64,000 bases of DNA from Naegleria gruberi. Lineage: Eukaryota. A model generated the notes under the pieces. It had not been told where the DNA came from. It did no database searches and saw only the letters and a list, made by a program, of their open reading frames with translations. Where the stretch lies: assembly GCA_000004985.1 (NCBI GenBank), contig GG738912.1; one strand, 5' to 3'. A program made the position numbers and the translations under genes. Each line of letters starts with the position of its first letter. Position 1 is the first letter of the stretch. Positions 9,701 through 63,526 of the stretch are shown in pieces.

Positions 9701-12700
9701 GGCATTAAATTATAAACATTCTACAAGTTAAAACTTACCATGACGACACATTCCATTCACACAATGAGGGAAATAACCTTCTCCATAAGATTTACAACTC
9801 TCATCACTTGTACATGTTTGTGTAATACATTTAAATTTAGAAGCATCACACCTTTGAGTACCTGGTCTTCCACTACAATGAAAATCAGTAGAACATTCTC
9901 CATTACATCTATTATTATCACACATTGGACTCCAATTGAATCCCAAACAACCATAATCACCAAGACATACTTTTTCTTTACAAGAATAATTTGATAAATC
10001 ACAAGATGGTCTAGTTGGGGAGGTACAATTGGTGTCAGCAATACATTCCTTACCACAATTCATCAGGCCAGTTAGAGGACTTGTCATACATGCACCGAAT
10101 TTTGAAGGACAATCATCATTGGATTCACAAATATCATTCAAGTTATAAGTTGCACATTCATATCCATTCTTGGCCATGCAAACATTAAATGTTCCATAAC
10201 AATCATTATCAACAAGACAAGCTGTTGCACATTTTCCAGATTTACAATACTTATTGGCTCCATCTTGAGGACAATCACTATCTTGACTACATGTTCTTTC
10301 AACACAGACATTATTTTCACAAATTGGTTTGCCAGGAGTATTAGAACAATGAGAATCAGTTTCACATTCAATGGCACAAACTTTAGAATTTCCATACATG
10401 GTAGAATAGGGAGTTACTCTACAGCCCTTTGTGGAAGCAGGACAATCTTTACCATATTTACACATAGTAGGAACACACATATTCAATGTAGTATTACAAG
10501 TTGGGGTATCCAAATATGAACTACAATCAGATGAGGAAGCACAAGGTGGATACATGGCCTTACATTGAGAATTAATACAATACTTATTGACACCATTTTG
10601 TGGACAATCCTTATCAGCTGAGCATGATTTAGCAACACAAGTATTTGAAGAACAAGTTGGTTTTCCATTAACATTCTTACAATTGGCATCTTCTGTACAT
10701 TCCACCTTTGAACAATAACTTGTTCCATTCAATGGCAAGAATGAACAATATTTGTAAGAAGTAGAGCTGCATTCAGATGAAACGATGCATGGCTTTGGTA
10801 CACATGCTCCATTTTTGTTACAATATGGTTTACCAGGTACTGATTCACATTCAGAATCAACACTACATTCAACATTATCACAAGTTGATCTAACACAATA
10901 TGGATAAACAGGATTTGTACAGTTAGAAGAGGTAGTACATGGTGTCTTTTCACATCTACTTCCCTTAGCTCCGTAATCAACACAAATTGGGAATCTAGCA
11001 GAAGTACAATCAGCATTTGAAGAACATGTCTTTTTACAAGTTCTATAACTTGTTGAGGAACTATCAGTGTCACATTTTCCAAATCTATATTCATTAGTAC
11101 AATCACTATCTGAAGCACATTCAAAGGCACAAACACCACTAGATCCACAGAAATACATACCATTGGTAGTACAAGTAGATACTGCATATGTATTGGCAGT
11201 AGAACAAGATACTGGTGAACAATAAGAAACTCCAGAAACTGATTGACAAAGCTTGTTGGCAGAGAAACCAGAACATGAACCACAAGGTCTCTTACAAGTT
11301 AATGAATTGGTACGAACCATTCCAGGTTTACAGGCACAATTATCTTTAGATTCACACCAACCAGCATCAACAGATCCACAAACTTCAGGATTATCTGATT
11401 TCATTGATCCACAAGTGGTAATATTACAACTGGATCCAGTGAAAGAGTTTGTACATGTACAAGTATCAGGTTTAGAACAAGTACCATGGCCACTACAAAC
11501 AAGTGAATTTGAAGCAGGGATACCAAAACAAGAAATTGCTTGACATTGACTTCCAGAATAACCACTTTGACATTTGCATGTATCCTTAGCGATACATTTA
11601 CCATGTCCACCACAAACAGATGTATCTAAATTGGAAGATCCAAAACAAGTTGTTTGTTCACAATTACTTCCATTGAAACCAGAATTACAGGTACAGTTAT
11701 CAAAACCAGAACAAACACCATTTCCACTACAAACTGTAGAATTGGTATTTGGAATTCCATTACAAGTTGTAAATTGACATTGATTTCCATTATGATTAGG
11801 AGTACATGAACATTTATCTAATGAATCACATGTACCATGTCCACTACAAACACTTGAATCATTTGCTACCTTATCAAAACACTTGAGTTGACAATCAGGA
11901 CAAATAACACCCTCACAATCAGCACCATTCAAACCAGTTCTACATTTACAAATACCACTTCCGACTTTTTTGGACTTGTCATAAATGAATGTACATTGAC
12001 CTCTTCCATTACAAACATCCAAAGCAGAAGAATACTTTCCATTACATTGAATTTCACATTTGTGATCAAAATCAATTCCAGGAATAGTACTAATGCAACT
12101 CTTTGGAGTGAGAATTTTGATCGAATTTGAGGATGAATGGACATACATGATAGATCCATCATCTAACAATACCATATCAGAGGCACCAGCCATCAAAGAT
12201 TTAACAGAACTATCAGTACTAAGATAACCCGTATCTTTAACAATTGTATAGAATGTAGTGAATGTCGGATCTGTAACAAATACTTGTTCTCTATCAGAAA
12301 CATAAACGATTGAACCTGCTGAAGCAAAAGTGAATGCTGGATAAATTTCACCAGCCCAAACGAGATCCAAAGTGTAAATTGAAATAACATTCTTCTTGAA
12401 AACATAGACATAGTCACCAGCAACAGCCACATTCAAAACAAACCTTGCACCAACATTACTCAAATCTCCAAGATAGTTACAACTTTTACCTTGATTGACA
12501 GCACTATGTTTACAAAGATATTCCTTATAGGAAGCAACTTGTATAGCATACATACTTTGTGTTTTTGAGCTGAAACCACCAAATGTCAATTCTCCCCAAA
12601 AACATGAAGAACCACAAGAGCTAGCGCTAGAACCATCTGAGCCAGCAGAAGAGGCACCACCAAATGAAATGACAACATTACCATTCTGAGCAATTTTCAA

Positions 12701-42612: not shown

Positions 42613-44228
42613 GGGAGGAATTTCATAACAGAGGAGAACACGCAAAAGGCTTTGATTGTTTTTGTAAAGGTTATGAAATACACAAATCCAGCGAGTTGGA
42701 GCATGCAATTGGTTGTTGTTATACATTCGGATTGGGAGTTGAAAAGGATTATTCTAAAGCAAGGGAATGGTATTTGAAAGCTGCTGAAAAGGGATTTGCA
42801 AATTCACAAAATAATCTTGGTATGATATATGAAAATGGATTAACTGTTGAAAAGGACTTGGCTGAAGCACTGGAATGGTATTTGAAAGCTGGTGAAAATG
42901 GTGATCTAACTGCTCAAGTAAATCTTGCTCGGCTCTACCGTGACGGTGAGGGAGTTGAACAAGATTATTTGAAATCATTCGAATGGAATATGAAAGCTGC
43001 TGAAGCTGGGGATGCAGAAGCTCAAGTTCACATTGGCTATGCATATGATAAGGGTCTAGGAGTTGAACAAGATTTTTCGAAATCATTCGAATGGAATTTG
43101 AAAGGAGCAGAAAATGGGAGCCTAGATGGTCAATTTAATGTTGGACTTTTATTGGAACTGGGGGATGGAGTTGAAAAAAACATCAAGAAATCTGTGTTTT
43201 GGAAATCAAAGTGTTTTAATAGGTCAAAATGTTTTGACTTTGTAGAAGAACCTTACGAGCAGTTTGCTATGCAATATTTTACATCAAATACTGAGGATTG
43301 GAATCAATCCTCACCAAATAGTGACAAAGAACACGTAGTCGTACGATTTGAAGAGAAGGATTTCACACTTTCACAAAAGCATTTAAAGCATTCAAAATAT
43401 TTATCAACCATGATGAATTCAAATTGGAAAGATTTCAATGTCAAAGAGAAAAACCGAACCATACTTGATTTGAGAACCATTCAAAATGATATATTTCAAG
43501 AACAAACAGATATCATTCAAATATTTAATAATTATGTGAACTACTTAACAAATGAAATATTACCACCAGATTTTGACATGAAATTGAAATTAATTGAACT
43601 GTCAAGATATTTACAAGATGACGGATGTATATTGAATATTGTCAAAGAAGCAAGTATTCTGCAGAGATTTTACATTCTTTTGATATTAGAAATTATTGTT
43701 GAACCTATTCACATTGCAATTACTAGTTGTTTTGCAGCAGAAACTAAATTTAAAATCAATGATCTCTCAGAAAATGTTATTGAAAAATTACTCACTCAGT
43801 CTGGCCTATCTCAACATGGAAAGGACGAGATTTATAATGTATTTAAAGAAAAATTCAATGGATATCCTATAGCAATCAGTAAGTTGATCTATATTCAATT
43901 CTAATTTTTCCAACTTAATTTAGATATGAATATTCTTCATGTAACATTTTCAACGCTTAAAGAGAAGAAACTAATTCATTTCAATCAAGAACAAGTCGAA
44001 TTTTCTTTGGAATTGGGTAAAGATATCGATAACACTATTTTCAATATCAACAGCTCGCATGATGTTCAATTCTTTGGAAAGAATGCCAAGTTATATATCC
44101 AGATATCGAGTAGTGTTGATGGAGTATATGGATTTTGGTTGGATAACAGTTCTGAAAAAGGAAAAACTATTTTCATTTTACCTGAGATTAACTTTGAGGC
44201 ACTTAACTTGATTATAATGACTACATAA
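42613..44228 (+). CDS. Sel1-repeat protein with BTB/POZ-like domain (paralogue B); 5' exon not located; 45-nt intron 43879..43923
   Basis: The frame is open from the acceptor tttaattttag|GG at 42612 without an ATG (the ORF track's Met is a TTG). Sel1 repeats ...AIGCCYTFGLGVEKDYSKAREWYLKAAEKG... BTB-like FTLSQKHLKHSKYLSTMM...KLKLIELSRYLQDDGCILNI. Splice ...GYPIAI N|gtaagt...tttag|AT ATG joins in frame to the 43926..44228 ORF. Confidence 0.6.
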
Positions 44229-44792: not shown

Positions 44793-47700
44793 TTACTTTT
44801 TATTGAGCAATGAAAGCGAGGATAAAAGGGCAACACCAGTTTTTCTTTCCTCTCCGTATTTGAATTGTCTAGTTACAAGGTTGAGTCGTTGATGGAATTG
44901 TGACTTGAGGACAGCTCGTTGTTTGGCAGTGAGGAATCTTCTTCCAATTGCTTGAATTGTTGTGGTAGATGATAAAGTTTGTTCAGAAAATTGAGTGGTC
45001 TGTTTTCTTGTAAAGGAACCTCGCAGCAAACCTTGGATAGTTTGTAAATTCTCATTCTTGATGCTTAATTCAACTCTCGTTCTTGATCCCTCAATTGCTG
45101 ATCGAATAGTGAACACCTTATCCGTTATACTCTTGAGTGATTTGGCTTGTTGAATTTGTCTGACTCGGGCTTGCAATAGCGAAATACTACTCAGAGCAAA
45201 TTCAAATTCATTCCTCTTATTGTGACACATAAAGAGAAGAGCGACAGTGTTAGATAACTCCTTCATATCAGTGAGACTCCCTCTCGTTTCATGACCATAA
45301 TACAAGCTCTGAAGATAGTTGGCAGAGTCAGAGACAGTTCTGAAATCTTCATTGACAAATCGTCCTCTAATAATACTCTGCAATGCGTTAATATATTGAA
45401 TGTTGGTATTAAGATCTCTGATTGCAATCTGTTGTTGCATGAGTGATTGAATGGATTCTGTGAGTATTTGCATTTTTTTGAATTCTTGTCTTGTTTGATT
45501 GGCTCTGTAGAGGGCAATGATCATATTTCTAGAATCGAGTAGAGAATCTCTGTCCTCATTAAAAGATCTTTTCACTAGGTTTGACCTGAAAAAGGTCTGA
45601 ATGACAATTAGTCCGCTCATTTTCATATCTCTTTGTTTGAGAGTTGTGAAAGTTCTCACCCTTGATTGAAAGATTTTCATATCTTTCTTTTTCTGATATG
45701 TTTTGAGAATGGTAGTCTTTCTTTCCAATAAGGATTGTAAAACAGTGGCCAGAGTGATAGACTTGCTAAAAGATCTTCTTGCAAGTTGCGATTTGAAGAG
45801 AGCTTGAATGATAGCAATATTTTCTCTGGTTTTTTCAATTCTTCTTTCTTCAGACATTCTATGGACAATAGATTGAATTGTTTTGATGGATTCGGTTGTG
45901 GTGGACGATTGTCTCCTGGTAGAAATTCCATGTAAGCGAGTTGTGACAATTTGAACTTTGGTCATAGAATTTGCATATTGTTTTCTAACTAGACTGGAAC
46001 TCATGAAGGTTGAAATTAAATCCATTTGAGAGGATATTCTTTCGAAAGTCTTCAATGCTAGTTGTTTTCTGCACAAGGACTGAATGTGAGTGAGAGAATT
46101 GATAACTTCTTCTCTACTGGTTCTCGCAGAATATCCTCTTGATGCAGCTTGGAGAGTACCAACACGTTGTAATTGATTTTCATGATTTTTCCTATCTGTA
46201 TTTCCTCTGGCAGCATTTTGAATTATAGTAATTGAATAGTATCTCCTTTCGTTTTGGTATTCTTGTTGAATTGAACGGCTTCTACAGACAGCTTGTAAAT
46301 TAAGAATATGCTTTTCGATACGTGATCTTGTGGAGAGTTGAATGAACCCCTTAGCAAATGATGTGAAAATCTGCAATCTCTCCTGTTCAAGGGTGGTTGC
46401 ATTTCTTTGACTTATGCCATTCCATAAAGATTGAAGTAAAATGACTTGATTGATAGAAGTAGCTTTTTCGTCTTTGGCTTGTTTTCTTCTTAATAGTGAT
46501 TGAAGAGCACTAACGTCTTGAATAGCTTCAGCATTTTCCCTACGTTTGTATTTACCTTGAAAAGCTGCTTGGATGGTGACTAAATCATGTTGAGCTCTTT
46601 CATAACCAGATCTCACAAGGACTCCTTTGGCAAGAGCATGTACATACTTGGTAAATGTTTGGAGTGCATGTATGTTTGATCTTTCCTTGTTTGCTCTCAC
46701 TAATGCTTGAATCATTTGAGTGGCATTCCTATCAATAGGAGAATAATTGTTCTTTTTAGATGATTTGTTTCTAATCAAAGCTTGCAAGACAATAATCTTG
46801 TTAAGGGTTTGATTTTTCAACATGTTGATATTTCTAGAATTAGCCAGTGCTTGTAGAGAAATTAAATCTGAAATGTGTTGCTTTCTGCTCTGTTCTTCAG
46901 CTTTTCTCCTTACCAATGCTTGCAATACTATGATACCAGAACAATCCATGTGAGTCGTGCTTCCTCTTAAAAAGGCTTGAATTATTGTTATATTTTCTAG
47001 TTGCTTTGATTCTATGTTTTGCATTGCAGAGGATCTACATCTAGCTTGTATTGCTAATACTGCATTCTTGGATATTTCAAACTCTGCTCTTGTAAATCTA
47101 TTTCTGATTAGTGACTGGATAATTTCAATATTGTTTAAGGAGTTTTTTACCAATAGTCTGGTCTTATTTCCTCTAAGGAAGGCACAAACCATTGAACTTG
47201 AACTAGTTTGTTTATCCAATTTCTTTTGTACTATTTTTGATCTTATTAATGATTCCAAAGTTTCCAATCTTTTCAAATCCAATTTCATCTTGGCAGCTTC
47301 AGATGATTTCCTAATAGTACTTTGAAGATTGGTAACAAATGCCATGCTGGTTTGAGCTAGTCTTCTTTCCATGCCTGATTGTATTAATGCATGAATAAGA
47401 TGAACACTCTCAATAGGGGATGCATGTTCAGTCCTTTCCTTGTGAGAAATTATTAAATTTTGTATCATGGAGACTGCTTCAAGTTGGTTAAGTTTGCTGG
47501 CAACTGTTGAGCTTGATCTAAAAGCAGATTGAATGGTAATAATTTGATTCTGCATGCGATTTCTACTAGTTCTTTCTGTATTACCTTGTAGCAAGGCATG
47601 CAATAGATTCACTCCACCTCTAATTTTTTGTTCATTAAACTTCCTGATAGTGGCTTGAGCAACAACCAACTTTTGAATATAAACCCTGCCATGGGAATTG

Positions 47701-50700
47701 TTCCTAACAATATGTCCTCTAATAAGAGCTTGCAAACTTGAAATTCGCTGCTTTTCACTCTCCAAACTAGCAGACACAAGGTTGGATCTTGCTGCTGATT
47801 GTATAATTTGAATTTGTTCCATCAATTTAAGCTTGACTTCTCTTTCTATGCATCCTTGGTTTAGTGTTTGAACAATTGTGGCAACATCTCTAAAAGCAGA
47901 CATTTGGAGCTTTTCAACCAGAGATTTTCCAAGTGATTGAAAGGTCAAAATAGCATCTTTTTGTCTACCATCGTTGACCCTTGTAAAGTGGCCAACTACA
48001 GCGCTTTGTATTATCTTGGTATTTCTGATTGCCTTCTCGGTTTCCCTACATTTCAAGAATCTCCTGACCAAAGATTGCATTATTTCCACCAAGTCCCTTG
48101 TTAAGTAAAAGGTTTGCCTTAATGATCTACCTTTAAAAAAAGATGCAAGGGTATTACTATCCTCAAAACGGTTCCTTACCAGAGCTGACTGTAACAAGGT
48201 TGAAATAATATCTATTTTGGACTTTTCTTGTTCCGCTAATCGCCTTGTGTTGAATGACCTAGCACTCAATGAAAGGATAGAAATCATGTCCAAATGAGCT
48301 TGTTTGCTTGTCATTACATGTTTTCCTCTGATTGCACTCTGAATTACAAGCACTTTGGTTAATTGATACATGTCCACATGGTTATTTCCACGTCCTCTGA
48401 AGAAGGCCTGAATATTAGTGATACTATCATGTACATGTGAAAAATTCTTCCTTTCCAAATATCCTCTAATGAGAGCTTGCTGAGTGTTGATGTGGTTTTT
48501 GGTAGGTTGTAGATTTTTTCTCTCATCTCTTCCTCTCATGCTAGATTGCAAATTGATGATGTAAATTGTGTACTGTTCATGTTGTGCACGTAGCGTGTGA
48601 GAAAGAATGAGAGATTGTAAAATCTTGATGTTGTTGATGCATGTTTCCGATTGTTTTCTATTGATGTATGCTCTTCCGAATGTTTCAACTAAAAGAGAAG
48701 AGTCAATCAAGTCCTGATGTTCCTTCAACTTTGCATGTCCTCTTACCACAGCTTGAACATATTTGGTGTTGTTTGAAAGGGTTGAAAGGTGAGCCTTTTC
48801 CAATTTGCTTCTTATACGAGCTTGTAAAGTTTTGATCTTGTTCAATTCATTGATGAAATCTCCTCTACAGAAAGAGGATTGTAAAAAACCTTGTACGATT
48901 TGAACATTTTCTACATTTTCAATAAATTTGTTCTCTGTCAATTGTCTTCGGGAAAGTGATTGAATAACAGTAACATATTCATTAACACTGCTTTCTATTT
49001 TCCTGGCTATAAAACCACGTACCGAAGCTTGAAGAGTCAAAATGTTATAGTGGTTATGTCTAAAGGATTTGATTTCATTCTTTTTACGAATGTTGGATTG
49101 CACCAACAATACGTTATTCATTTGTTTCTCTTGTTCTTGAGTTATTAAAAAGGTCTTGACTCTTGCCTGAAGAGTTATTATTAAACTCTTATTTTGTGAA
49201 AATTCCTTTCGTGCAAAGTTTCCAAATAAAACAGATTGGGTATTCACTAAATCTTCTCTTCTGGCAGATAAATCTTTTCTTGTGAGATAAGATCTAGCTG
49301 CAGTTTGAATCATTCTCAAGTTCGCAACACTGTTTCTAAACAAGCATCTTGTTTCGAATGTCCTTAAAAGTGCCTGAGTAAAACAGATTCTAATTAGTTC
49401 ATTCTTATGCTCCAAACGTTGCACATGACCTTTCATGAGAGAACCTAATATATTTGAGCTTTCAGTTGTGTGTTTAACAAGTTGATTTTCAATTTTTCCT
49501 TGATATAATGTTTGAATTTGATGGGCCAAATTAATTTTAACTTGAAAACCACGTCTAGTCTGTACGCCTCGCAGCCATGATTGTATAGTCGAAACCTTTC
49601 GTTGAGTTTGGTGCATCAATGAACGGTTTAGCTTCCCTGAGAAAGACGCTTGAATACTATTGATGGCATTAATTCGATGCTTCAAATCAATTCTTCCCAA
49701 ATGTCCCTTGATTGAATGCTGTAAAGTTTGAACAGCATTTTGCAAGGAATGCTTATTTACTTGCTCCAATGTGCCTCTTGCTCTTGACTGAATTAGATGG
49801 GCAGCATTTCTCGTATCATAAAATTTCATCTGTCCACTGTGGCCACGAGCCAAAGAGGTCAAGAGAAGTGCCTTATCTAAATCCGTGCAAGCTTGCGAAG
49901 CGGTATTAATGCTCCTTAATAGAGTTTGAAGAAGCAACACACCCTTTTTAAGATCTGTATATTCCTTCCTTCTTGCGACAGCGTCAATTAAAGTTTGTAG
50001 GACAAGCACGTCCGATTTATACCTTTGGACTACCTTTTGTTGTTCTAGTCCACGACCATTGGCTTGAAGAAGGGAAGCAACTTGCACATATTGAGATAGG
50101 TCCTTTCTTACAAATAAAGATCTTGAAACAGGTTGAACAAGGATAGCAACGTGTTTCTTCTTTTTAAAGTCTAGGAATACCTTTCTTGCACAACAAACAG
50201 ATTGAATTAAAGTGGATGCATTCAACGCTGAATCTTTGAATTTCTGAATCAATTTGGCTCTTATAAGCGATTGTACAAGTGTAATTCTATTACATTGTTC
50301 TTTAAAGGTTGTACGAGCATTGAAACCCCTGATTGCACTATCCATAATCAAACATTTTGAATTCAAAGATTTTCTGTTTCGGTATTCGATAAATCTTCTG
50401 GAAAGCGTTTGAATGGTAGTAATGTCATTGATTAGATGGTTCAAATTGGATTGGCATTGCTTGACCCTTATCAAGGTCTGTATTGCTTGGATATTAGAAA
50501 TTTCCTTAGAGGAGTCTTGTTTCAAAAGTATTCTCCTGATCAATGCCTGAAGTAATGGAATGGATTCACTAGTGGTTTGATATTTCTTTCTCTGATTGCA
50601 TCCTAGTATCGTAGATTGAATTACTTTGATATTTTCCATAGAAAGAGTAAAGCATTTAGCTTGTTGTCCAGCTCTGAATAATCCTTGGATTACTACAGCA

Positions 50701-53700
50701 GAGTCCAAACTTGTTGTGAGATTAGTTCTTTCCAATCTTCCAACTAATGCTGCATTGAATAGATGAGCCAAATTTCGGAGCAATTGCAGGTTTTTCCTAC
50801 TAACATTAGAAGACATCATAGCTTGCAAAACCTCAATTGAGGAGGAGAAGATTACCATTTCCTGCCTGTCAGAAGAACCCTTGATGGATGCTTGCAGAGT
50901 GAGTAAAAAATTCTCCAATTGGCTCACTTCCTTCATTGCTGCTCTTCCTCTAACAAGACTTTGAAGCAATATTATCCTACTTGTCAAAACCGAACGAGAA
51001 TGTTTAACTGATAATGCCTTGGAAAGAGCTGTAAATATTTCGGATCTATCCAATTCGAATCTATAAATTTGTCCTTCTCCTTTGCCTCTGCAAAAGCTTT
51101 GCATTATCTGTATGGCTTCCTTCTTCGATTGTAAATCTTTTTGCTTATGATGTCTCCTTACAAGTGACTGTAAAGTAATGATTTGTTGAATATTGTGTCT
51201 TGTGAAGGAGACTAATAATCTAGACCTTGAAATAGACTGAAGAATTACAATTTGTTGAATATTCTTTGCAAAACAACCTCTTTCAAGTTTTGATCTGGAG
51301 AGCGATTGAATACATTCCAAGTTCAACTTGTTAGAATTGAAATCTTCTTGTTGGTATCTTCTTCTGTGCCAAGTTTGAACGGTGAGAGCAGTAACCCTCA
51401 TCAGATTGAATGTCTCTCTGATTCTATTAGACTCGCACAACACTGCAATGTTTGAAAGGGCTTGAGTCCTGAACACCTCAAAGGCAAAGAGTGAACAAAC
51501 TCTAATTAACTCTGCATCCTCGACAAGTCTTTGGTCTTCCATGATTTCGTCCTCCTCTCCAAAATAAGGTCTCATTCTCGGTATTTCACAATTGTCAGGA
51601 TAGCAATCATAATTAAATCTAACTACAGCCTCCATGAACTCGATAATGAAAAGTGGAATATACTTGAAATCAAGTGGGAATAGCCGTATTTCGTTCAAGT
51701 ATGGGAAGAGTTGTACTTGAACCCATATCAACAAAAGGGGAACCGTAGATTTTGCATCTTCTTCTACCACCTCATCTACCTTTTTGCTTGTTGTCGAATA
51801 GTAATGTTCATTCATTTTGGTGAGAACGGATTTAAGTTTTTCTCCATCATAGTGAACCAGTAGAGCTTCGTGGAAAATGTGTGAGAGAGGGTGTTCATCT
51901 CCAATTTTCATCAATGACTTGTAATTTTCCACATACTTTTCTGCATCTTCGATTGATATCTTTTCAGAAATCAAGTCAACTATACCTCTAACATTATCAC
52001 CTCTAGGATCTAATTTTTCAATTTCCTTTCTCAAAATTGCTGGGGTTAGTTTGGATTTAATCTTATCCAAAGAAGTAGGTTCCTCTGGGAATTGTATTCC
52101 TTCTTCATCTGAAATTTTTTCAATTTCCGATTGGTCTGATGATGACTCTCTGCCATGTCTCTTCAGTGGAGGTTCTTCATAATTTGCCAGAGATTCTAAG
52201 GATGTAACCTTAGCCATATCAGTGGATGTTGGTGTTGAAGGAGTTTTTGCCTTTTTGGCAAACTTGTTGAAAAAACTTTTGATTTTTTCACTTTTTGTCT
52301 TTTTTCTTTCTAATAGTTGACTACTTGTCAATGCTATTTGCGTATTACTATATGTTGATTCATCATCATCAAGTGTATCCAAACTCTGTCCTACAGAACG
52401 GCTGAAATTATTGTTTCTTGCTGGTGCTGATGCAACAGAAAATGCAGTGAAATTACTGTGAGAAGAAATTGTATCAAAAAGATCATCCCTTTCCACAGAT
52501 CCCTTCCCATCCATTAGACTGATTTTAAATGATTTGGATATATTCATGGCTTGAGATCTTCTGACTGGACTCTTTGGAGTTGTTGAGCCAGAAGCTTTTT
52601 CAGCCAGCTCTGAAAAATTGACACCCTTTCTTCTTTTCTGAGACAAATCTTTGTGTACTCCATTAAATTCTGTCAACTTGACTAGAACTTCACTCACCTC
52701 ACTATTAACATGAGAATGGGTTGTGGTTGTACTTATTTGAGAGGCAAAGGTGTGAGTATATTGTGAATATTGAGATTCTTCTGGTGATACAGGTGTTGCT
52801 GTTTCCTTCTTTTTTCTTTTTAATTTTGTAATTATGGAAGGCAACTTTCCTAGTAGAGATTTTGATCTTCCTTTCGTGGTTTCCTTTGTTATTGGAACTA
52901 CTATAGAGGGAACAACAACTAGAGGTCCTTGAAAATTATTGTTTGCTGATGCTGATGTATTACTGGTACCAGTATGATTAGGTGTATTTCCACTAGAAAT
53001 ATCCGATGTATTCATATCATCAAAATCATTGTCAGATTCATTCTCCTCTCCTTGCATATCATTCTCTGTAATATCATCAAATGATGCTCCATACACTCTA
53101 TTGCCATGTTGAACATTTTGAGTTGATGGTGTAATGCTGGATGCACTTGGTGGTGGTGAGGGTCTTCCTCTTGGTGAAAATTCATTCCTTGGAGAACGAC
53201 CATTTGGCATGATTGACCTAGGTGATAATAAGTTACCTCCTCTCGGAGTGTATAAATTGTGAGCTAGTGAATGTGATCGATGTGTACGACCACCACTCTT
53301 GGATGAAGATGTTGTAGATGCAAGTGAACTCTTATTTGAATTATTTCTAAATCTACCAACAGGTCTATTCTGTACAGGTGGTTTACTAATTACTATGGCT
53401 ACAGGTGTGGAGGAATTAATTGATGGTGAATTATCGCTATTATTGTTGGTTTGTTTACTCGATGTTACTAAATTATTCGAATAGATTATTACTCCTCCTC
53501 CATTAGTTGAAGAAGTACTTGTTCCATTCTGATTATTAGGTATTTGTCTATAGAAGGAAGAAGATGAATGTAGGGATGTATTGCTATTATTGTTACTATT
53601 ATTGAAAAGGGATGCTGGATTGGAATTTTGAATGGCAGAAAGTTTTAACTGGGGAATGACAGCAGGTACTCTTTTCGAGGAAGTAGAAGAGAAGGTAGAT

Positions 53701-54275
53701 GCATTAGGTGGAGTGGATGGAGAAATTGGTGAAAAGGTCGTGTTATTACTTCCCTGAAGATGATGAAGATTTGAGGCAAAATTGGGACTTGATGACTGAG
53801 AACGATGTCTTGGTGATAATGTCGATGATGAAGACAATGAATTGGCAAGTGATAAATTAGAAGAACCCACATTCCGTAAAACTGAAGAAGCCGAAAGTAT
53901 TCCTCCTCCTACTCCTCCTGGTGAATTCGAGTTATCCAAACATTGACTATTACCTATCGATAATTGACCTCCATTATTATTATTATTACTAATAATATTA
54001 TTATTAATCGAAGCAGCAATCAATCCTCCAATATTATTATTATTATTATCCATAATACTATTATTTAAATTAATTGTTCCTTGTTGTTGCACACTTGTCG
54101 GCGATGATACAACAACAGATGCAGATGCACCTCCTCCTCCTCCCTGAGCAGACGAAGAAATACTTCCATTGAAAAGAACATTTTGTGCAGCTGCTGATGA
54201 TGATAAATTGGCGGCGGGAAGTAAATCTTGATGGAGGCGGGAAGTGATTTTTTCGGGATTTATCGAATTTCCCAT
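44793..54275 (-). CDS. Giant IQ-motif array protein (3,160 aa): low-complexity N-terminus, ~300-aa globular region, then ~2,100 aa of tandem IQ-like calmodulin-binding motifs to the C-terminus (ASPM-like array)
   Basis: Single uninterrupted ORF. From about residue 1,000 the pattern [ILV]Q..[ILVF]R[GRSKA]....[RK] recurs every 23-27 residues, e.g. IQSLVRG, LQALIRR, IQSAIRGK, IQALVRANK. I estimate on the order of 80-90 copies by eye. Confidence 0.8.
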   Translation of the reverse strand: MGNSINPEKITSRLHQDLLPAANLSSSAAAQNVLFNGSISSSAQGGGGGASASVVVSSPTSVQQQGTINLNNSIMDNNNNNIGGLIAASINNNIISNNNNNGGQLSIGNSQCLDNSNSPGGVGGGILSASSVLRNVGSSNLSLANSLSSSSTLSPRHRSQSSSPNFASNLHHLQGSNNTTFSPISPSTPPNASTFSSTSSKRVPAVIPQLKLSAIQNSNPASLFNNSNNNSNTSLHSSSSFYRQIPNNQNGTSTSSTNGGGVIIYSNNLVTSSKQTNNNSDNSPSINSSTPVAIVISKPPVQNRPVGRFRNNSNKSSLASTTSSSKSGGRTHRSHSLAHNLYTPRGGNLLSPRSIMPNGRSPRNEFSPRGRPSPPPSASSITPSTQNVQHGNRVYGASFDDITENDMQGEENESDNDFDDMNTSDISSGNTPNHTGTSNTSASANNNFQGPLVVVPSIVVPITKETTKGRSKSLLGKLPSIITKLKRKKKETATPVSPEESQYSQYTHTFASQISTTTTHSHVNSEVSEVLVKLTEFNGVHKDLSQKRRKGVNFSELAEKASGSTTPKSPVRRSQAMNISKSFKISLMDGKGSVERDDLFDTISSHSNFTAFSVASAPARNNNFSRSVGQSLDTLDDDESTYSNTQIALTSSQLLERKKTKSEKIKSFFNKFAKKAKTPSTPTSTDMAKVTSLESLANYEEPPLKRHGRESSSDQSEIEKISDEEGIQFPEEPTSLDKIKSKLTPAILRKEIEKLDPRGDNVRGIVDLISEKISIEDAEKYVENYKSLMKIGDEHPLSHIFHEALLVHYDGEKLKSVLTKMNEHYYSTTSKKVDEVVEEDAKSTVPLLLIWVQVQLFPYLNEIRLFPLDFKYIPLFIIEFMEAVVRFNYDCYPDNCEIPRMRPYFGEEDEIMEDQRLVEDAELIRVCSLFAFEVFRTQALSNIAVLCESNRIRETFNLMRVTALTVQTWHRRRYQQEDFNSNKLNLECIQSLSRSKLERGCFAKNIQQIVILQSISRSRLLVSFTRHNIQQIITLQSLVRRHHKQKDLQSKKEAIQIMQSFCRGKGEGQIYRFELDRSEIFTALSKALSVKHSRSVLTSRIILLQSLVRGRAAMKEVSQLENFLLTLQASIKGSSDRQEMVIFSSSIEVLQAMMSSNVSRKNLQLLRNLAHLFNAALVGRLERTNLTTSLDSAVVIQGLFRAGQQAKCFTLSMENIKVIQSTILGCNQRKKYQTTSESIPLLQALIRRILLKQDSSKEISNIQAIQTLIRVKQCQSNLNHLINDITTIQTLSRRFIEYRNRKSLNSKCLIMDSAIRGFNARTTFKEQCNRITLVQSLIRAKLIQKFKDSALNASTLIQSVCCARKVFLDFKKKKHVAILVQPVSRSLFVRKDLSQYVQVASLLQANGRGLEQQKVVQRYKSDVLVLQTLIDAVARRKEYTDLKKGVLLLQTLLRSINTASQACTDLDKALLLTSLARGHSGQMKFYDTRNAAHLIQSRARGTLEQVNKHSLQNAVQTLQHSIKGHLGRIDLKHRINAINSIQASFSGKLNRSLMHQTQRKVSTIQSWLRGVQTRRGFQVKINLAHQIQTLYQGKIENQLVKHTTESSNILGSLMKGHVQRLEHKNELIRICFTQALLRTFETRCLFRNSVANLRMIQTAARSYLTRKDLSARREDLVNTQSVLFGNFARKEFSQNKSLIITLQARVKTFLITQEQEKQMNNVLLVQSNIRKKNEIKSFRHNHYNILTLQASVRGFIARKIESSVNEYVTVIQSLSRRQLTENKFIENVENVQIVQGFLQSSFCRGDFINELNKIKTLQARIRSKLEKAHLSTLSNNTKYVQAVVRGHAKLKEHQDLIDSSLLVETFGRAYINRKQSETCINNIKILQSLILSHTLRAQHEQYTIYIINLQSSMRGRDERKNLQPTKNHINTQQALIRGYLERKNFSHVHDSITNIQAFFRGRGNNHVDMYQLTKVLVIQSAIRGKHVMTSKQAHLDMISILSLSARSFNTRRLAEQEKSKIDIISTLLQSALVRNRFEDSNTLASFFKGRSLRQTFYLTRDLVEIMQSLVRRFLKCRETEKAIRNTKIIQSAVVGHFTRVNDGRQKDAILTFQSLGKSLVEKLQMSAFRDVATIVQTLNQGCIEREVKLKLMEQIQIIQSAARSNLVSASLESEKQRISSLQALIRGHIVRNNSHGRVYIQKLVVAQATIRKFNEQKIRGGVNLLHALLQGNTERTSRNRMQNQIITIQSAFRSSSTVASKLNQLEAVSMIQNLIISHKERTEHASPIESVHLIHALIQSGMERRLAQTSMAFVTNLQSTIRKSSEAAKMKLDLKRLETLESLIRSKIVQKKLDKQTSSSSMVCAFLRGNKTRLLVKNSLNNIEIIQSLIRNRFTRAEFEISKNAVLAIQARCRSSAMQNIESKQLENITIIQAFLRGSTTHMDCSGIIVLQALVRRKAEEQSRKQHISDLISLQALANSRNINMLKNQTLNKIIVLQALIRNKSSKKNNYSPIDRNATQMIQALVRANKERSNIHALQTFTKYVHALAKGVLVRSGYERAQHDLVTIQAAFQGKYKRRENAEAIQDVSALQSLLRRKQAKDEKATSINQVILLQSLWNGISQRNATTLEQERLQIFTSFAKGFIQLSTRSRIEKHILNLQAVCRSRSIQQEYQNERRYYSITIIQNAARGNTDRKNHENQLQRVGTLQAASRGYSARTSREEVINSLTHIQSLCRKQLALKTFERISSQMDLISTFMSSSLVRKQYANSMTKVQIVTTRLHGISTRRQSSTTTESIKTIQSIVHRMSEERRIEKTRENIAIIQALFKSQLARRSFSKSITLATVLQSLLERKTTILKTYQKKKDMKIFQSRVRTFTTLKQRDMKMSGLIVIQTFFRSNLVKRSFNEDRDSLLDSRNMIIALYRANQTRQEFKKMQILTESIQSLMQQQIAIRDLNTNIQYINALQSIIRGRFVNEDFRTVSDSANYLQSLYYGHETRGSLTDMKELSNTVALLFMCHNKRNEFEFALSSISLLQARVRQIQQAKSLKSITDKVFTIRSAIEGSRTRVELSIKNENLQTIQGLLRGSFTRKQTTQFSEQTLSSTTTIQAIGRRFLTAKQRAVLKSQFHQRLNLVTRQFKYGEERKTGVALLSSLSLLNKK

Positions 54276-54703
54276 CTCTCTATGATTTCATACTAGGTGT
54301 TATGGGAGAGAGGCAGAGGCTTGGGAAGGGAGAGAACCAATTTGTTTTTTTGGTTTTGTGATGAGTGATAGCGCTTCTGCTTGATGTGTTGTTGTTGATG
54401 ATGAAAAAGTGGAAATTGATTGGCGAATTTTTTCAGAATGAATTTTGACAGGAGACTTCCGTACGTGTTGTTTGGCAGGTGGCTTTCAGATTGGGGTTGG
54501 ATCAGGTGAAAAGTTTGCGACTTCCATCTATGAGCAAAATTCTTGTTCCATGTTGATCAATATCAGGTTGACTTTAATTTTACAACCATTGTATTTCAAT
54601 ATTTGAATTCAGATTTACTCAAAAAGTTTTAGATTGAAACACGTTCTAGATAGAATTTCTGTCTTGAAAAATATAAATTAGTTTTATTAAGATTGAAAAT
54701 TAA

Positions 54704-55821
54704 TATTATTTTGATTCGAAATTTGGAATTAAACCTGATAATATTACACTCACAACAATTCTTCTGTCCTGTGCTGAACATCATGATATTGGAAAGGGTC
54801 ATACCCGACTACATCAAGGAGAATAGACTTGTTGGTGATGTCTCATAAACTTTTACTCTAAATGTACTGATTTAGAGACTGCTCTCTCAATTTTCGAATC
54901 AATTATTAAGAAAAAGAAGGAAGTGAACTCATACACGTACAATGCTATTATTTTTGCATGTGCAGAGCATGGGCAGTCAAGCCATTGCTTTAAATTCTTC
55001 ACTCAAATGATACAGAGCAATATTGAGTTATTGCCAACACCAGAAACATTCACAGCTTTGCTTACTGCTTGTAGCCATTCTCATATGTACGATAAAGCCT
55101 GGGATATCTACAATTCTATGGGAACAAGTTTCGGTATTGAACCAAGTAATATTCATACATCTTGTTTGATTGATGCACTAGCGAGATCTGGGCAATTTGT
55201 GAAAGCTCTTGAAATAATTGGAAAACGCAAAGATAAAGTATATTGGATGACTCTGATGGGAGCATGTAGAAAATTCAACCATGTTGAGATAGCAGAGAAG
55301 GCTTTTGATGCATTGATTGACATTGATTCAACAGATGGTTCATATTATGTTTTATTATCCCATATTTATATATTCAACAATCAAATGGAAAAGGCAGCAA
55401 CAATAAGATTTAATGAAATATAATAATGGCTCAAAAGTTGTTGGAGTCACTTCTGTGATACATTGGCGACGAGATTCACACCCAGTGATGACAGATAAGC
55501 ATCTCATTCAAGTCGAGCTTGATAAATTGATTAATGAACTAATGGAGGCAGGTTATTCTCCAGATACTAGATGGGTTACCAGAATAGAAACTTTGAGCAC
55601 TGAAGAAAAACGAAACCTTTTATGTAGGCATTCTGAAAAGATTGCCATGGCGTATGCTTTTGTCAGAATGCCAAAAACTAAACAAATAGTCTTATTCCAA
55701 AACCTGACTGCCATGAAGCAACAAAGTACATTTCCAAAGTGAGAAAATGATTGTTGTGAGAGATGCAAGTCGATACTACCATATTAAGGACGGAAAATGT
55801 AGCTGTGGTGATAATTGGTAA
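54704..55821 (+). pseudogene. PPR (pentatricopeptide repeat) E/DYW-type gene relic, fragmented by at least 4 frame breaks and lacking an N-terminus
   Basis: PPR motifs GIKPDNITLTTILLSCAEHHDIGKG, LINFYSKCTDLETALSIFESI, NSYTYNAIIFACAEHGQ, TPETFTALLTACSHS, GIEPSNIHTSCLIDALARSGQ. E/DYW-like region across three frames: MKYNNGSKVVGVTSVIHWRRDSHP...GYSPDT...EEKRNLLCRHSEKIAMAYAF (HSE motif) ...DCHEATKYISKV...MIVVRDASRYYHIKDGKCSCGDNW-stop at 55821. Confidence 0.6.
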
Positions 55822-56906
55822 TAACTGTACTAATTTCACTTACAATAATTCAGTCTTACCAATTTATCAAACATCAAATAATAATATCGTATCAAATGAA
55901 AACAACTAGAGATTCTTTCCTGTTAGAATCAAATAAGTATCTGGACTTGAAGTACAAATCCAAACACACTCCATTATAATATCATCACTGTTGTTCCTCC
56001 GAGTGAATCGGACTACTCAGAGACTAATCTCTCTATCTCTCAATCATCTAGAGGCTTATCGACATTACATAACAGACTTGTTTGATAGTATGTCGGAGAA
56101 GGTATTCGTTCAAGTTGTTTTAATAACAAATCTGATATTATAACAATATCTCTTTGCAACCCAAAAAGTTAAGGTATATGATCCAGTCTAGACAGAATAC
56201 TTTCCTTATTTACCTTTGGACATGTTGAGATAAAACGAAGACATAATATTGAGATTGGTCCTTGGAGGATGGCCTTAATAATTTATAGGTTCTGCGAAGT
56301 TATGTATTGGTCCCTTAAGCTTGCAGTGGGGAAGAGAATGTAGGAAAAGTCGAATACAAAAACATCATGACAAATAGTAATCAAATCATGGTGTTGAGAA
56401 TTGTAAATACTAATATGAATTTACATGATTTATCAATATCAAATATTGGATTCTTGATCCACAAGTGTTGCTTAATATCATCTCTAATACCCTATTAGAG
56501 CATTAATTTTAAACCGCCAATAGTTCCATTGTCCAAAACCAAACCACATCCTTAATTTGGCTAGCATATCCGAAAATCCAAATTCAGAACGTATTGCTTA
56601 TGGCGCATATGCTTGCGTCAATCGAATCAGCAGCATGAAGCTCAACTTTGCAGATGATGGATCTGCTAAGAGGACAAGACCTAAACAAACTCAAAAAAAA
56701 CCAACAACACAACAATCACAACATTAAGCAGAAGAGGAATAAGAACTCTTTCTTTAGTAGTACTACTCTCTGACAAGCACTGCAAGACCGCATATAATAT
56801 TTGGTGGTTCGATTTCTTCTTTTTTAAAAGCTCTCACAGAAAGTGAACTGGATTGGATCACAATAATATTATACAATATATTATAATATTCAAGAATAAT
56901 TATACT

Positions 56907-61045: not shown

Positions 61046-61663
61046 ATGATGAACAACCAAACAAACGAAACAGTAGAACAAGCAAATGAATTAAAGTACG
61101 AATTAAACTCTGTTGTTGAACGTTTAGATCAAGTGGTCATGGCTTGGAGCAGTAAAATGACCAAACGCGAGAATGATTTTCAAGAATTACAAAAACTTTC
61201 AACAAAATTCACATTCAAAGAAGGTGAAATTATCAAACTAAACATTAGTGGAATCGTTTTCAAGGTTTTTAAGGAAACTTTGGATCAGAAAATTGTAAAA
61301 CCTAAACCTACAACAATTAAATTTACAAATAGTAGACTTAGAAATGAACAAAGTATGGAACAGTCAACGGAGGAAGTTCAATATTATCCACCTAACTTTT
61401 TCAATGTACTCATGTCTGGAATTCACAATTTATCGATGGATAAGGATACAAATGCGATATTTATTAATAGAGATCCAACTCATTTTCATTGCATTCTCAA
61501 TTATTTGAGAGGTCAAGGACATTCGAAAGATTTCGTTCTTCCAAAAGATTCGTATGCTCTCGAATGTTTGTTTATCGAAGCAAGATTTTACATGTTGGAA
61601 GGTTTGATGGAAATTATTGAGAGAATTTCTCCAAATATTAAACAAAATTATTGCAGAGATTAG
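61046..61663 (+). CDS. BTB/POZ protein of the KCTD / K+-channel-tetramerisation (T1) type
   Basis: IIKLNISGIVFKV...FINRDPTHFHCILNYLRGQG...LPKDSYALECLFIEARFYMLEGL matches the T1/KCTD BTB consensus (FIDRDG..F..ILNYLR.G). Confidence 0.7.
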   Translation: MMNNQTNETVEQANELKYELNSVVERLDQVVMAWSSKMTKRENDFQELQKLSTKFTFKEGEIIKLNISGIVFKVFKETLDQKIVKPKPTTIKFTNSRLRNEQSMEQSTEEVQYYPPNFFNVLMSGIHNLSMDKDTNAIFINRDPTHFHCILNYLRGQGHSKDFVLPKDSYALECLFIEARFYMLEGLMEIIERISPNIKQNYCRD

Positions 61664-62083: not shown

Positions 62084-63526
62084 ATGTTCGCAGAGGAAAC
62101 TCATGGTCATTACCATGATAAAAAGAAGACGAAACTCGCCAAAGATAATGTTGACGAAATGATTGAAATTGAAATGCCAAATAATGCAAATAACAGCAGT
62201 AGTGGAAACGGAGATGTGGCTGGACAACAAACAGTAATGCATAGAATTGGTTCTTCTCCGACCTTTAGTCCAGTTTCTGTTCCTAGGTTAAATGTTTCGT
62301 ATGTGGATCAAGCTACTCGAGAGTGGCAATCGGATTTTAAACAATTTCCTCTAGTGGATACAGCCAATATTTCAAAGAAGGAAGTTGTAGAGTTTTACGA
62401 AAAGCAAAATGAAATGGTTGATGAATATTCGAAACTTTTCAAATCCAAGTTGGAGCATTCGGACGAAACTACAACTGAAGGCGATTTGACAGGACGTTCT
62501 GTTGCCAATGAAGCTGCTTTCGAACAGGAAGAACATATTACACCTGCCATGAAAAGATTAGAATATTGGTGCATTCACTTGTCATTTTGGACAAACGTTT
62601 GTTTATTTGTGTTGAAATGTTCTGCGAGTATCTTATCAGTTTCTCTCTCAGTTATTACATCCACAATTGATTCTGCTTTGGATTTATTATCTGGTTTGAT
62701 TATTTATATTACTTCATTGTATAGAAGAAGAAAGAATGATATTTATCAATATCCAATTGGTAGAAATAGATTGGAACCAATTGGTTTTGTAATTTTTGCT
62801 ACTTGTATGTGTACTGCAAGTTTGCAAATTATCAAGGAAGGTTTATCTCAAATCGTGACAGGTCTCATTACAGGTGATGTTTATATTAATGCAAATAGCT
62901 CAGATGATTCAAATGCTGAAGTTGACTGGATGTTTGGTATTATGATTCCTAAATATGTTGCCACTATTTTCTATTGGTATGGTATTGGTGTCCTGTTGGC
63001 AACCATTCTCATCAAATTGGCTCTCCATTTGATTTGTAGAAGAGTTAAACATTCTCCTTCAGTTATTGCCTATGCATTCGATCACAGAAATGATGTCTTG
63101 TCTAATAGTTTGTTGCTTGTTTCCCTATTCTTGAGCAAATATTTGTGGTGGCTCGATTCTATTGGTGCTGTCATTTTGAGTATTTACATTATTAAGAGTT
63201 GGATTGACGAATCTTTGGAACATGTGACTAAACTTGTTGGTTTGACTGCTGATAAGGAATACATTCAAAAGTTGACATTCATGGCATTGAATCATAGTCC
63301 TCTAATTACTCAAGTTGATTCAGTAATGGCCTATTATTCTGGTGCCAATATGATTGTTGAGATTGATGTTGTCTTGCCAAAGGAAACTCCACTCTTGGAA
63401 TCTCACGACGTTGGTGAAACATTGCAAAAGAAGATTGAATCCTTGCCAGATGTTGAAAGATGTTATGTCCATTTGGATTATGAATTTTCACATACAAAGG
63501 ATTATGAACATGTCGTTAAGGATTAA
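62084..63526 (+). CDS. Cation diffusion facilitator (CDF) transporter, Mn-type (MTP8/11-like)
   Basis: Six TM helices. TM2 STIDSALDLLSG and TM5 FDHRNDVLSNS both carry DxxxD, the Mn-CDF signature; Zn-CDFs carry HxxxD. C-terminal cytoplasmic domain with HLDYEF. Confidence 0.8.
   Translation: MFAEETHGHYHDKKKTKLAKDNVDEMIEIEMPNNANNSSSGNGDVAGQQTVMHRIGSSPTFSPVSVPRLNVSYVDQATREWQSDFKQFPLVDTANISKKEVVEFYEKQNEMVDEYSKLFKSKLEHSDETTTEGDLTGRSVANEAAFEQEEHITPAMKRLEYWCIHLSFWTNVCLFVLKCSASILSVSLSVITSTIDSALDLLSGLIIYITSLYRRRKNDIYQYPIGRNRLEPIGFVIFATCMCTASLQIIKEGLSQIVTGLITGDVYINANSSDDSNAEVDWMFGIMIPKYVATIFYWYGIGVLLATILIKLALHLICRRVKHSPSVIAYAFDHRNDVLSNSLLLVSLFLSKYLWWLDSIGAVILSIYIIKSWIDESLEHVTKLVGLTADKEYIQKLTFMALNHSPLITQVDSVMAYYSGANMIVEIDVVLPKETPLLESHDVGETLQKKIESLPDVERCYVHLDYEFSHTKDYEHVVKD

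Follow-up and report, generated by a model that had tools for sequence, protein, structure and literature searches.

Among the closest described systems to the locus considered here are the land-plant pentatricopeptide repeat (PPR) proteins of the DYW type, which act as C-to-U RNA-editing factors. In this family deamination of the target C is the work of the DYW domain, while the PPR array binds to the RNA upstream of that C, a division of tasks that is established for the plant proteins and presumed for those of heteroloboseans. DYW-type PPR editing factors are rare outside plants. The present locus is a broken gene of this type in nuclear DNA of the heterolobosean Naegleria gruberi NEG-M. 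It occupies positions 54716-55821, on the plus strand, of a 64,000-nucleotide stretch of contig GG738912.1 (GCA_000004985.1), and this whole stretch is referred to below as the window. On comparison with its intact relatives, the relic is very probably a non-functional pseudogene, the 3′-terminal third of a former gene for a mitochondrial DYW-type PLS-class PPR C-to-U RNA-editing factor.

In 2010, Knoop and Ruedinger reportedly counted ten DYW-PPR proteins in N. gruberi, against the 11 cited later. The first DYW-type PPR proteins from beyond the land plants are credited to this protist (Knoop and Ruedinger 2010, as cited in PMC4202320; bioRxiv 10.64898/2026.09.04.749523). The account given by Fu et al. 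2014 (PMC4202320), citing Knoop and Ruedinger 2010 and Ruedinger et al. 2011, lists 11 DYW-PPR proteins and two verified mitochondrial C-to-U sites, and by that account both the genes and the editing have been known since 2010-2011. A first-pass annotation of the locus had presented it as a plant-style gene in a non-plant genome. The host is indeed not a plant, but the surprise was overstated, since N. gruberi is, as cited in PMC4202320, where the family was first described beyond the land plants. The family is familiar from this species, and the relic is one of its members, dead and unannotated.

Domain content and closest relatives

In a three-frame translation the coding match runs from about 54700 to 55821 and is spread over all three plus-strand frames (Table 1), and every minus-strand open reading frame (ORF) across the region is shorter than 75 aa. 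Five PPR motifs and one partial motif are followed by an E motif (E1/E2) and then by a DYW deaminase domain. Searches of the in-frame pieces with Pfam gave matches above the curated cut-offs to PPR (1.3e-18) and PPR_2 (1e-17), to E_motif (1.7e-7; 31.9 bits against a cut-off of 27.3; residues 118-161 of the ORF starting at 54923) and, in two fragments, to DYW_deaminase (2.7e-11 and 1.5e-9; 43.5 and 38.0 bits against a cut-off of 24). A profile hidden Markov model (HMM) made from 57 plant DYW-PPR proteins was run on the six-frame translation of the window and matched at this locus only. The matches are collinear, covering model positions 225-250, 270-456, 485-560, 564-576 and 577-602 of 602, and positions 561-563, the V-C-x of NLRVCxDCH, are absent from the relic. 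The PPR array is also collinear with that of the closest relative, a protein of Willaertia magna. The first-pass annotation had described at least five PPR motifs ahead of E-like and DYW-like sequence, with which Pfam and the plant HMM agree, and the search with plant PPR and DYW profiles that it proposed returned clear matches. Nine variants of the relic's fragment ORFs and one neighbouring ORF of the window had no exact match in a collection of 15 billion proteins.

Several signature motifs of the DYW domain persist. CRHSEK is retained at 55623-55640, and the HSE motif noted at first is thereby confirmed. The C-terminus reads ...KDGKCSCGDNW and is followed by TAA at 55819-55821. The second metal site (H..H..CxC) and the D-Y/N-W tail are retained as RYYHIKDGKCSCGDNW, a region in which H-to-Y and F-to-I changes are seen at two positions that are otherwise invariant. 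This end had been described as a variant of CSCGDYW. The CSCGDNW tail is real, but its DNW is no sign of decay; as the W. magna protein also ends in CSCGDNW, the tail is regarded as a feature of the lineage. Judged by these similarities, the relic is a homologue by descent of the DYW-type PLS-class PPR RNA-editing factors.

Relatives were found by an exhaustive HMMER search with a 194-aa in-frame piece (window positions 54839-55420), followed by local blastp of the frame-repaired translation. Word-indexed protein searches gave only land-plant proteins or, with the DYW part, also a few short DYW-only proteins. Such searches are leaky and their negatives are not to be taken as absence: the 67%-identical W. 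magna protein, with its identical block of 19 residues, and all N. gruberi paralogues were missed by them and found by the exhaustive search. The W. magna protein, KAL9657062.1 (808 aa; P0137 in the protein library), is 67% identical to the relic over 385 aa (protein residues 427-808) by blastp. The next intact relatives are EFC46752 (799 aa) and EFC41923 (662 aa) of N. gruberi, both at 42%, followed by EFC49906 of N. gruberi (822 aa) and KAL9655006 of W. magna (813 aa), both at 38%. The best land-plant proteins are about 35% identical.

A frameshift-aware alignment of the relic with KAL9657062 gave 73% amino-acid identity (265/362 in-frame codons), and the nucleotide identity to the W. magna locus is 74% (814/1099). 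The relic corresponds to W. magna codons 425-808 plus the stop, the TAA standing at the same position in both, and 19 consecutive residues of its DYW remnant, LLCRHSEKIAMAYAFVRMP, are identical to the W. magna protein. Naegleria and Willaertia are sister taxa (PMC11702301). Going by the best match, the relic would be the N. gruberi counterpart of ABK040_002688, the gene for KAL9657062.1 (GCA_041937235.1, contig JBEGDK010000023.1), because the W. magna protein itself reaches only 37.6% with the best of the three recovered N. gruberi DYW-PPR proteins (EFC46752, EFC49906 and EFC41923).

The relic and ABK040_002688 share the motif order PPR, E1/E2, PG box, HSE, DCH, CSCGDNW and stop. The W. magna gene has an uninterrupted ORF of 808 codons, all catalytic motifs and more PPRs upstream, whereas the relic has eight frameshifts, lacks LRVCG and the whole 5′ part, and lies among other genomic neighbours. 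The three N. gruberi proteins have the same PLS-E-DYW architecture and conserved DYW motifs as the relic; their genes are intact and annotated, whereas the relic, 38-42% identical to them, is broken and unannotated. Land-plant DYW-PPR factors (PF01535, PF20431, PF14432) show profile-level homology across its retained length. The relic differs from them in its heterolobosean nuclear genome, its DNW tail and its lack of function.

Frame breaks and missing parts

The lesions were mapped against the W. magna locus twice, by a frameshift-aware protein-to-DNA alignment and by an independent MAFFT alignment of the DNA, and the two agree. Nine length differences were found, eight of which disrupt the frame, and seven of these eight are multi-nucleotide (2-16 nt). 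At least four frame changes had been claimed at first; the changes are real, but the count was low. Two of them had been mended by the addition of one A each. This repair fails when the closest gene is compared, as 2 nt (AGAGAT to AGAT) and 4 nt (TG[TAAA]ATT) have been lost at the two breaks. With eight frame-disrupting indels and no start, the relic is not a continuous ORF with a start codon. Introns were considered as the cause of the frame changes and rejected, as homologous codons abut every break.

Table 1. Features of the relic and its surroundings (positions in the window; break sizes relative to W. magna)
Feature	Position	Strand	Basis or remarks
PPR array remnant (one partial and five PLS-type motifs)	54716..55273	+	W. 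magna KAL9657062 codons 425 to ~615; Pfam, frameshift-aware and DNA alignments; frames 2, then 0 (54798-54839), then 2 again
E motif (E1/E2)	55274..55405	+	Pfam E_motif; frame 2
DYW deaminase remnant including conserved TAA stop	55407..55821	+	Pfam; frames 0, 1, 2, 0, 2, 1
HSE codons (HxE catalytic/zinc motif kept)	55629..55637	+	Sequence and alignment
Frame break 1, net -5 nt (DLAKGK-IIHNY vs DI--GK/VIPDY)	~54797	+	Both alignments
Frame break 2, 16-nt deletion (-16), about five codons gone (VMLDRS region)	54840..54841	+	Both alignments
Sole in-frame length difference, +6 nt (GTTATT; NIELLPTPE vs GIQPTPE)	55027..55032	+	DNA alignment
Frame break 3, 2-nt deletion (-2; ATA AGA GAT to ATA A GAT)	55406	+	Both alignments
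Frame breaks 4-6, clustered in PG-box region: +1 (A at 55458), -5 (55483), -11 (55496)	55458..55496	+	Both alignments
Frame break 7, 13-nt deletion (-13), LRVCG gone	55704..55705	+	Both alignments and plant HMM
Frame break 8, 4-nt deletion (-4; RKCKIVV vs RK/IVV)	55748..55749	+	Both alignments
Spacer, 5′ truncation boundary	54276..54715	.	440 nt between the ATG of the divergent IQ-motif ORF (54275) and the relic
IQ-motif ORF, 3160 aa, 9,483 nt, unbroken	44793-54275	-	Pfam IQ 3.1e-22; divergent, adjoins the relic
Cryptochrome DASH, EFC37960/XP_002670704	20899-22560	+	Exact protein match
EFC37962	35478-37346		Exact protein match
Sel1-repeat protein	42696-43904	+	
BTB/POZ protein	61046-61663	+	
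EFC37966, cation-efflux (ZnT-like) transporter	62084-63526	+	Exact protein match

The PG box (PGxSWIEV..VHxF) of the relic is not intact, having taken three frameshifts and lost about six residues. Its ancestral reading, YIGDEIH / SDD / KH, persists in frames 1, 2 and 0. The clustered breaks in this region are proved, as YIGDEIH (7/7 residues, frame 1) and SDD (3/3, frame 2) are identical to W. magna in alternative frames. A reading of the region in frame 0 as VIHWRRDSHP, similar to the plant GDxSHP, with one in-frame deletion was tried and rejected, as the comparison with W. magna gives three frames. The three indels sum to -15 nt and frame 0 is therefore open across them.

The 13-nt deletion takes out the first zinc-binding Cys of CxDCH and leaves DCH at 55706-55714. 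The motif NLRVCxDCH is invariant in all eight of the intact Willaertia, Naegleria and plant sequences aligned. The absence of this Cys had been noticed at the outset and is borne out, the residues LRVCG having been deleted.

At the other end of the gene, at least 424 codons of the W. magna ORF are missing. When residues 1-430 of P0137 were compared with the window by tblastn, only repeat cross-matches inside the relic were returned, and W. magna codons 1-424 have no counterpart anywhere in the 64 kb. The plant HMM has no match in the 440-nt spacer upstream of the relic, and a local DNA alignment of this spacer with the W. magna upstream coding sequence scored 25, against a mean of 25.7 and a maximum of 34 for shuffled sequence. 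Since the spacer scores at the shuffle mean and has no protein-level similarity, the 5′ part is considered to be deleted and not merely eroded. Upstream of the relic there is nothing comparable to the presequence-like start of the W. magna upstream ORF, MRRLRIASKLGF..., and the early statement that an N-terminal targeting region is lacking holds, as the N-terminal part is absent. The repeats around the locus are short and at chance level only, and no transposon-like structure was seen there.

Inactivation of the gene and competing explanations

The substitutions in the relic carry a signature of long constraint. Over the 362 codons aligned with W. magna, the Nei-Gojobori method gave a pN of 0.151 and a pS of 0.696, the proportions of nonsynonymous and synonymous differences, with a dN/dS of about 0.085 and synonymous sites near saturation. 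Identity at the three codon positions is 81%, 87% and 54%. These values indicate that the sequence was kept by purifying selection through most of the period after Naegleria and Willaertia diverged. Relative-rate counts of the Tajima type, for which paralogues or plants served as outgroup, gave 17-24 amino-acid changes for the relic and 19 for W. magna, and 10 and 5 with plant outgroups; in neither case is the excess significant. In eight intact proteins 41 columns are invariant; the relic keeps 36 of them, with two substituted, and has lost the other five by deletion. The repaired path contains no in-frame stop. Because neither a substitution excess nor in-frame stops are present, the inactivation appears to have been recent and to have proceeded mainly by small deletions.

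In the N. gruberi lineage, the 5′ part with the presequence and most of the PPR motifs was very probably lost by deletion, and eight small frame-disrupting indels were gained, one of them taking the catalytic zinc ligand. From what is left, neither a PPR array long enough for useful RNA binding nor a working deaminase can be made. By homology, the ancestral protein would have been a mitochondrial site-specific C-to-U editing factor. The likeliest reason for its loss would be that its mitochondrial site ceased to need editing among the ancestors of N. gruberi, for instance by a genomic C-to-T change, and the gene was most likely dispensable once its site was gone. This account is drawn from plants, where editing factors are described as being kept only while the target site persists (PMC5992886). 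The co-evolution of the CRR28 and RARE1 type treated in that source resembles the present case, in that one site-specific factor is lost from a lineage while a related lineage keeps it. The difference is that here the lost mitochondrial site would be deduced from the relic.

With a dead gene in N. gruberi and an open ORF in W. magna, the two species could be compared to link a protist editing factor to its site. It is possible, though doubtful, that the relic records the loss from the N. gruberi lineage of one mitochondrial C-to-U site that is still edited in W. magna by ABK040_002688. On that view, N. gruberi mitochondrial DNA should lack the site on which the W. magna protein acts and have a pre-edited T there. 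If true, this would be the first factor-to-site assignment, and the first co-loss of factor and site, for plant-type editing in a protist. Otherwise, the value of the relic lies chiefly in getting the annotation and the size of the family right.

The relic could instead have arisen by partial duplication of an N. gruberi gene that is still intact at another locus; it would then be a non-unitary pseudogene, and no function would have been lost. Recent inactivation with few extra substitutions fits a young partial duplicate; the relic starts abruptly in the middle of the gene, and synteny with the W. magna locus is lacking. The library of representatives at 50% identity could also mask an N. gruberi member behind P0137. 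Against this last point, clustering tools usually take the longest member as the representative, and a full-length N. gruberi copy in that cluster would then probably exceed 808 aa. Against a duplicate, three protein searches, word-indexed and exhaustive (HMMER and blastp), found no N. gruberi protein closer than 42%, and the weak match of P0137 to the three recovered N. gruberi proteins speaks the same way. A duplicate is considered unlikely.

The first-pass annotation had offered two readings of the locus, a decaying pseudogene or a functional gene garbled by sequencing errors in homopolymers. The second, taken more widely as a working DYW-PPR gene whose frame suffers from such or other base-calling errors in the assembly alone, has in its favour that several breaks lie in A-rich sequence and that the repaired path has no in-frame stops, a low dN/dS and no excess of substitutions in the relic lineage. 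However, seven of the eight frame-disrupting differences are larger than a single base, an invariant zinc ligand has gone through a 13-nt deletion, and at least 424 codons are absent, including any start and presequence, with only the 440 nt before the neighbouring gene. The adjacent 9.5-kb ORF (9,483 nt) is unbroken, although about 69 breaks would be expected there at eight per 1.1 kb. On these grounds sequencing error is rejected as very improbable, and the pseudogene half of the earlier alternative is supported. Nor is it plausible that a natural in-frame indel was joined by a 1-nt error each time; seven such coincidences would be needed, and elsewhere in the alignment a length difference that keeps the frame occurs just once. 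A further point against error is that N. gruberi was presumably assembled from Sanger reads. Independent copies were sought by a protein-pattern scan of JGI metagenomes and by a degenerate DNA pattern for HSEKIAMAYAF, and neither returned any.

Continued expression of the locus is still less probable. The frame would have to be restored by programmed frameshifting, insertional RNA editing or tiny introns, or a fragment ORF would have to act in trans, such as the 109-aa ORF at 55413-55742, which contains the HSE motif and could be pictured as a DYW-like subunit. The stop-free repaired path and the open frame 0 across the PG-box indels are compatible with this, and plant systems with separate DYW proteins acting in trans are described in bioRxiv 10.64898/2026.09.04.749523. 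The eight breaks, however, differ in size and direction and share no common sequence motif. Introns would need far larger gaps between frames, and codons homologous to W. magna run up to each break; the deleted LRVCG and the missing 5′ part are beyond any correction mechanism. The 109-aa ORF has neither the CxDCH motif nor the C-terminal zinc site. Recent horizontal transfer of a fragment from a land plant, as the plant-only results of the word-indexed search might suggest, is already refuted by the far higher identity to W. magna (67% against about 35% by HMMER and blastp), by the DNW tail and the 19-residue block common to the relic and W. magna, and by a GC content that matches the surrounding N. 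gruberi DNA.

Several points weigh against reading the relic as the dead counterpart of ABK040_002688. Its orthology to that gene is a matter of best-hit similarity, and the W. magna genes within 10 kb on either side of ABK040_002688 have no match in the window, so that synteny is not conserved. One frame change also cuts the W. magna gene model off from its upstream PPR ORF. For a unitary pseudogene, with no functional copy left in N. gruberi, the closest intact relative should be in another species and none closer among the paralogues of its own genome; the protein searches gave 38-42% for N. gruberi and 67% for W. magna, whereas the search at DNA level covered the 64-kb window, and an intact second copy may lie elsewhere in the N. 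gruberi genome. Ordinary neutral decay would not obviously lead one to expect eight frameshifts but neither a nonsense codon nor a measurable excess of substitutions. The ratio of indels to substitutions seems high, though not extraordinary for an AT-rich protist genome, and decay rich in indels and poor in substitutions might point to a mutation spectrum in N. gruberi with a strong bias towards deletions. Finally, the case for the reality of each single indel is built on internal arguments, which are strong.

Neighbouring genes and related proteins

The relic adjoins a long divergent ORF that encodes many IQ calmodulin-binding motifs behind an N/S/Q-rich, low-complexity N-terminus. Its exact 3160-aa sequence is not in the protein collection and the public gene model must therefore differ. 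The other neighbouring genes (cryptochrome DASH, BTB/POZ, cation-efflux and Sel1-repeat) have no obvious tie to RNA editing. Three ORFs of the window are identical to the N. gruberi proteins EFC37960, EFC37962 and EFC37966, which belong to one scaffold of 238,573 bp and by which the locus is placed in the NEG-M nuclear genome. The GC fraction is 0.349 in the 54001-56000 bin and ranges from 0.315 to 0.366 across the window.

The W. magna locus (L001:9064-10001, JBEGDK010000023.1) is annotated as two genes. A 295-aa PPR ORF with a start resembling a mitochondrial presequence ends at 9951, and the 808-aa DYW-PPR ORF goes on in the +1 frame, its open frame beginning already at 9923. The continuity of the PPR motifs (..ALNFFEE / KLSDDVITYG..) suggests a single W. 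magna gene of about 1,100 aa with one frame change, which is either real damage or a fault of the assembly. The W. magna assembly was made from Oxford Nanopore Technologies (ONT) plus Illumina reads (PMC11702301).

The short DYW proteins P0127-P0136 were compared with the relic as possible orthologues and rejected. P0128 (200 aa) and P0136 (129 aa), from ENA/Logan, are short E+DYW-only or DYW-tail proteins with ends reading CEDFW or CGDFW. The best match of P0128 is the W. magna DYW protein KAL9655006 (52%), and the strongest local matches of P0136, over a 43-residue C-terminal tail, are W. magna KAL9657062 (67%) and N. gruberi EFC46752 (65%). The sources of both are possibly other protists with truncated or stand-alone DYW proteins. 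P0287, an 854-aa protein from an ENA contig, is 97.7% identical to the 662-aa EFC41923 of N. gruberi and 192 residues longer, which suggests that the EFC41923 gene model is N-terminally truncated and that a close relative of N. gruberi is present in public ENA assemblies.

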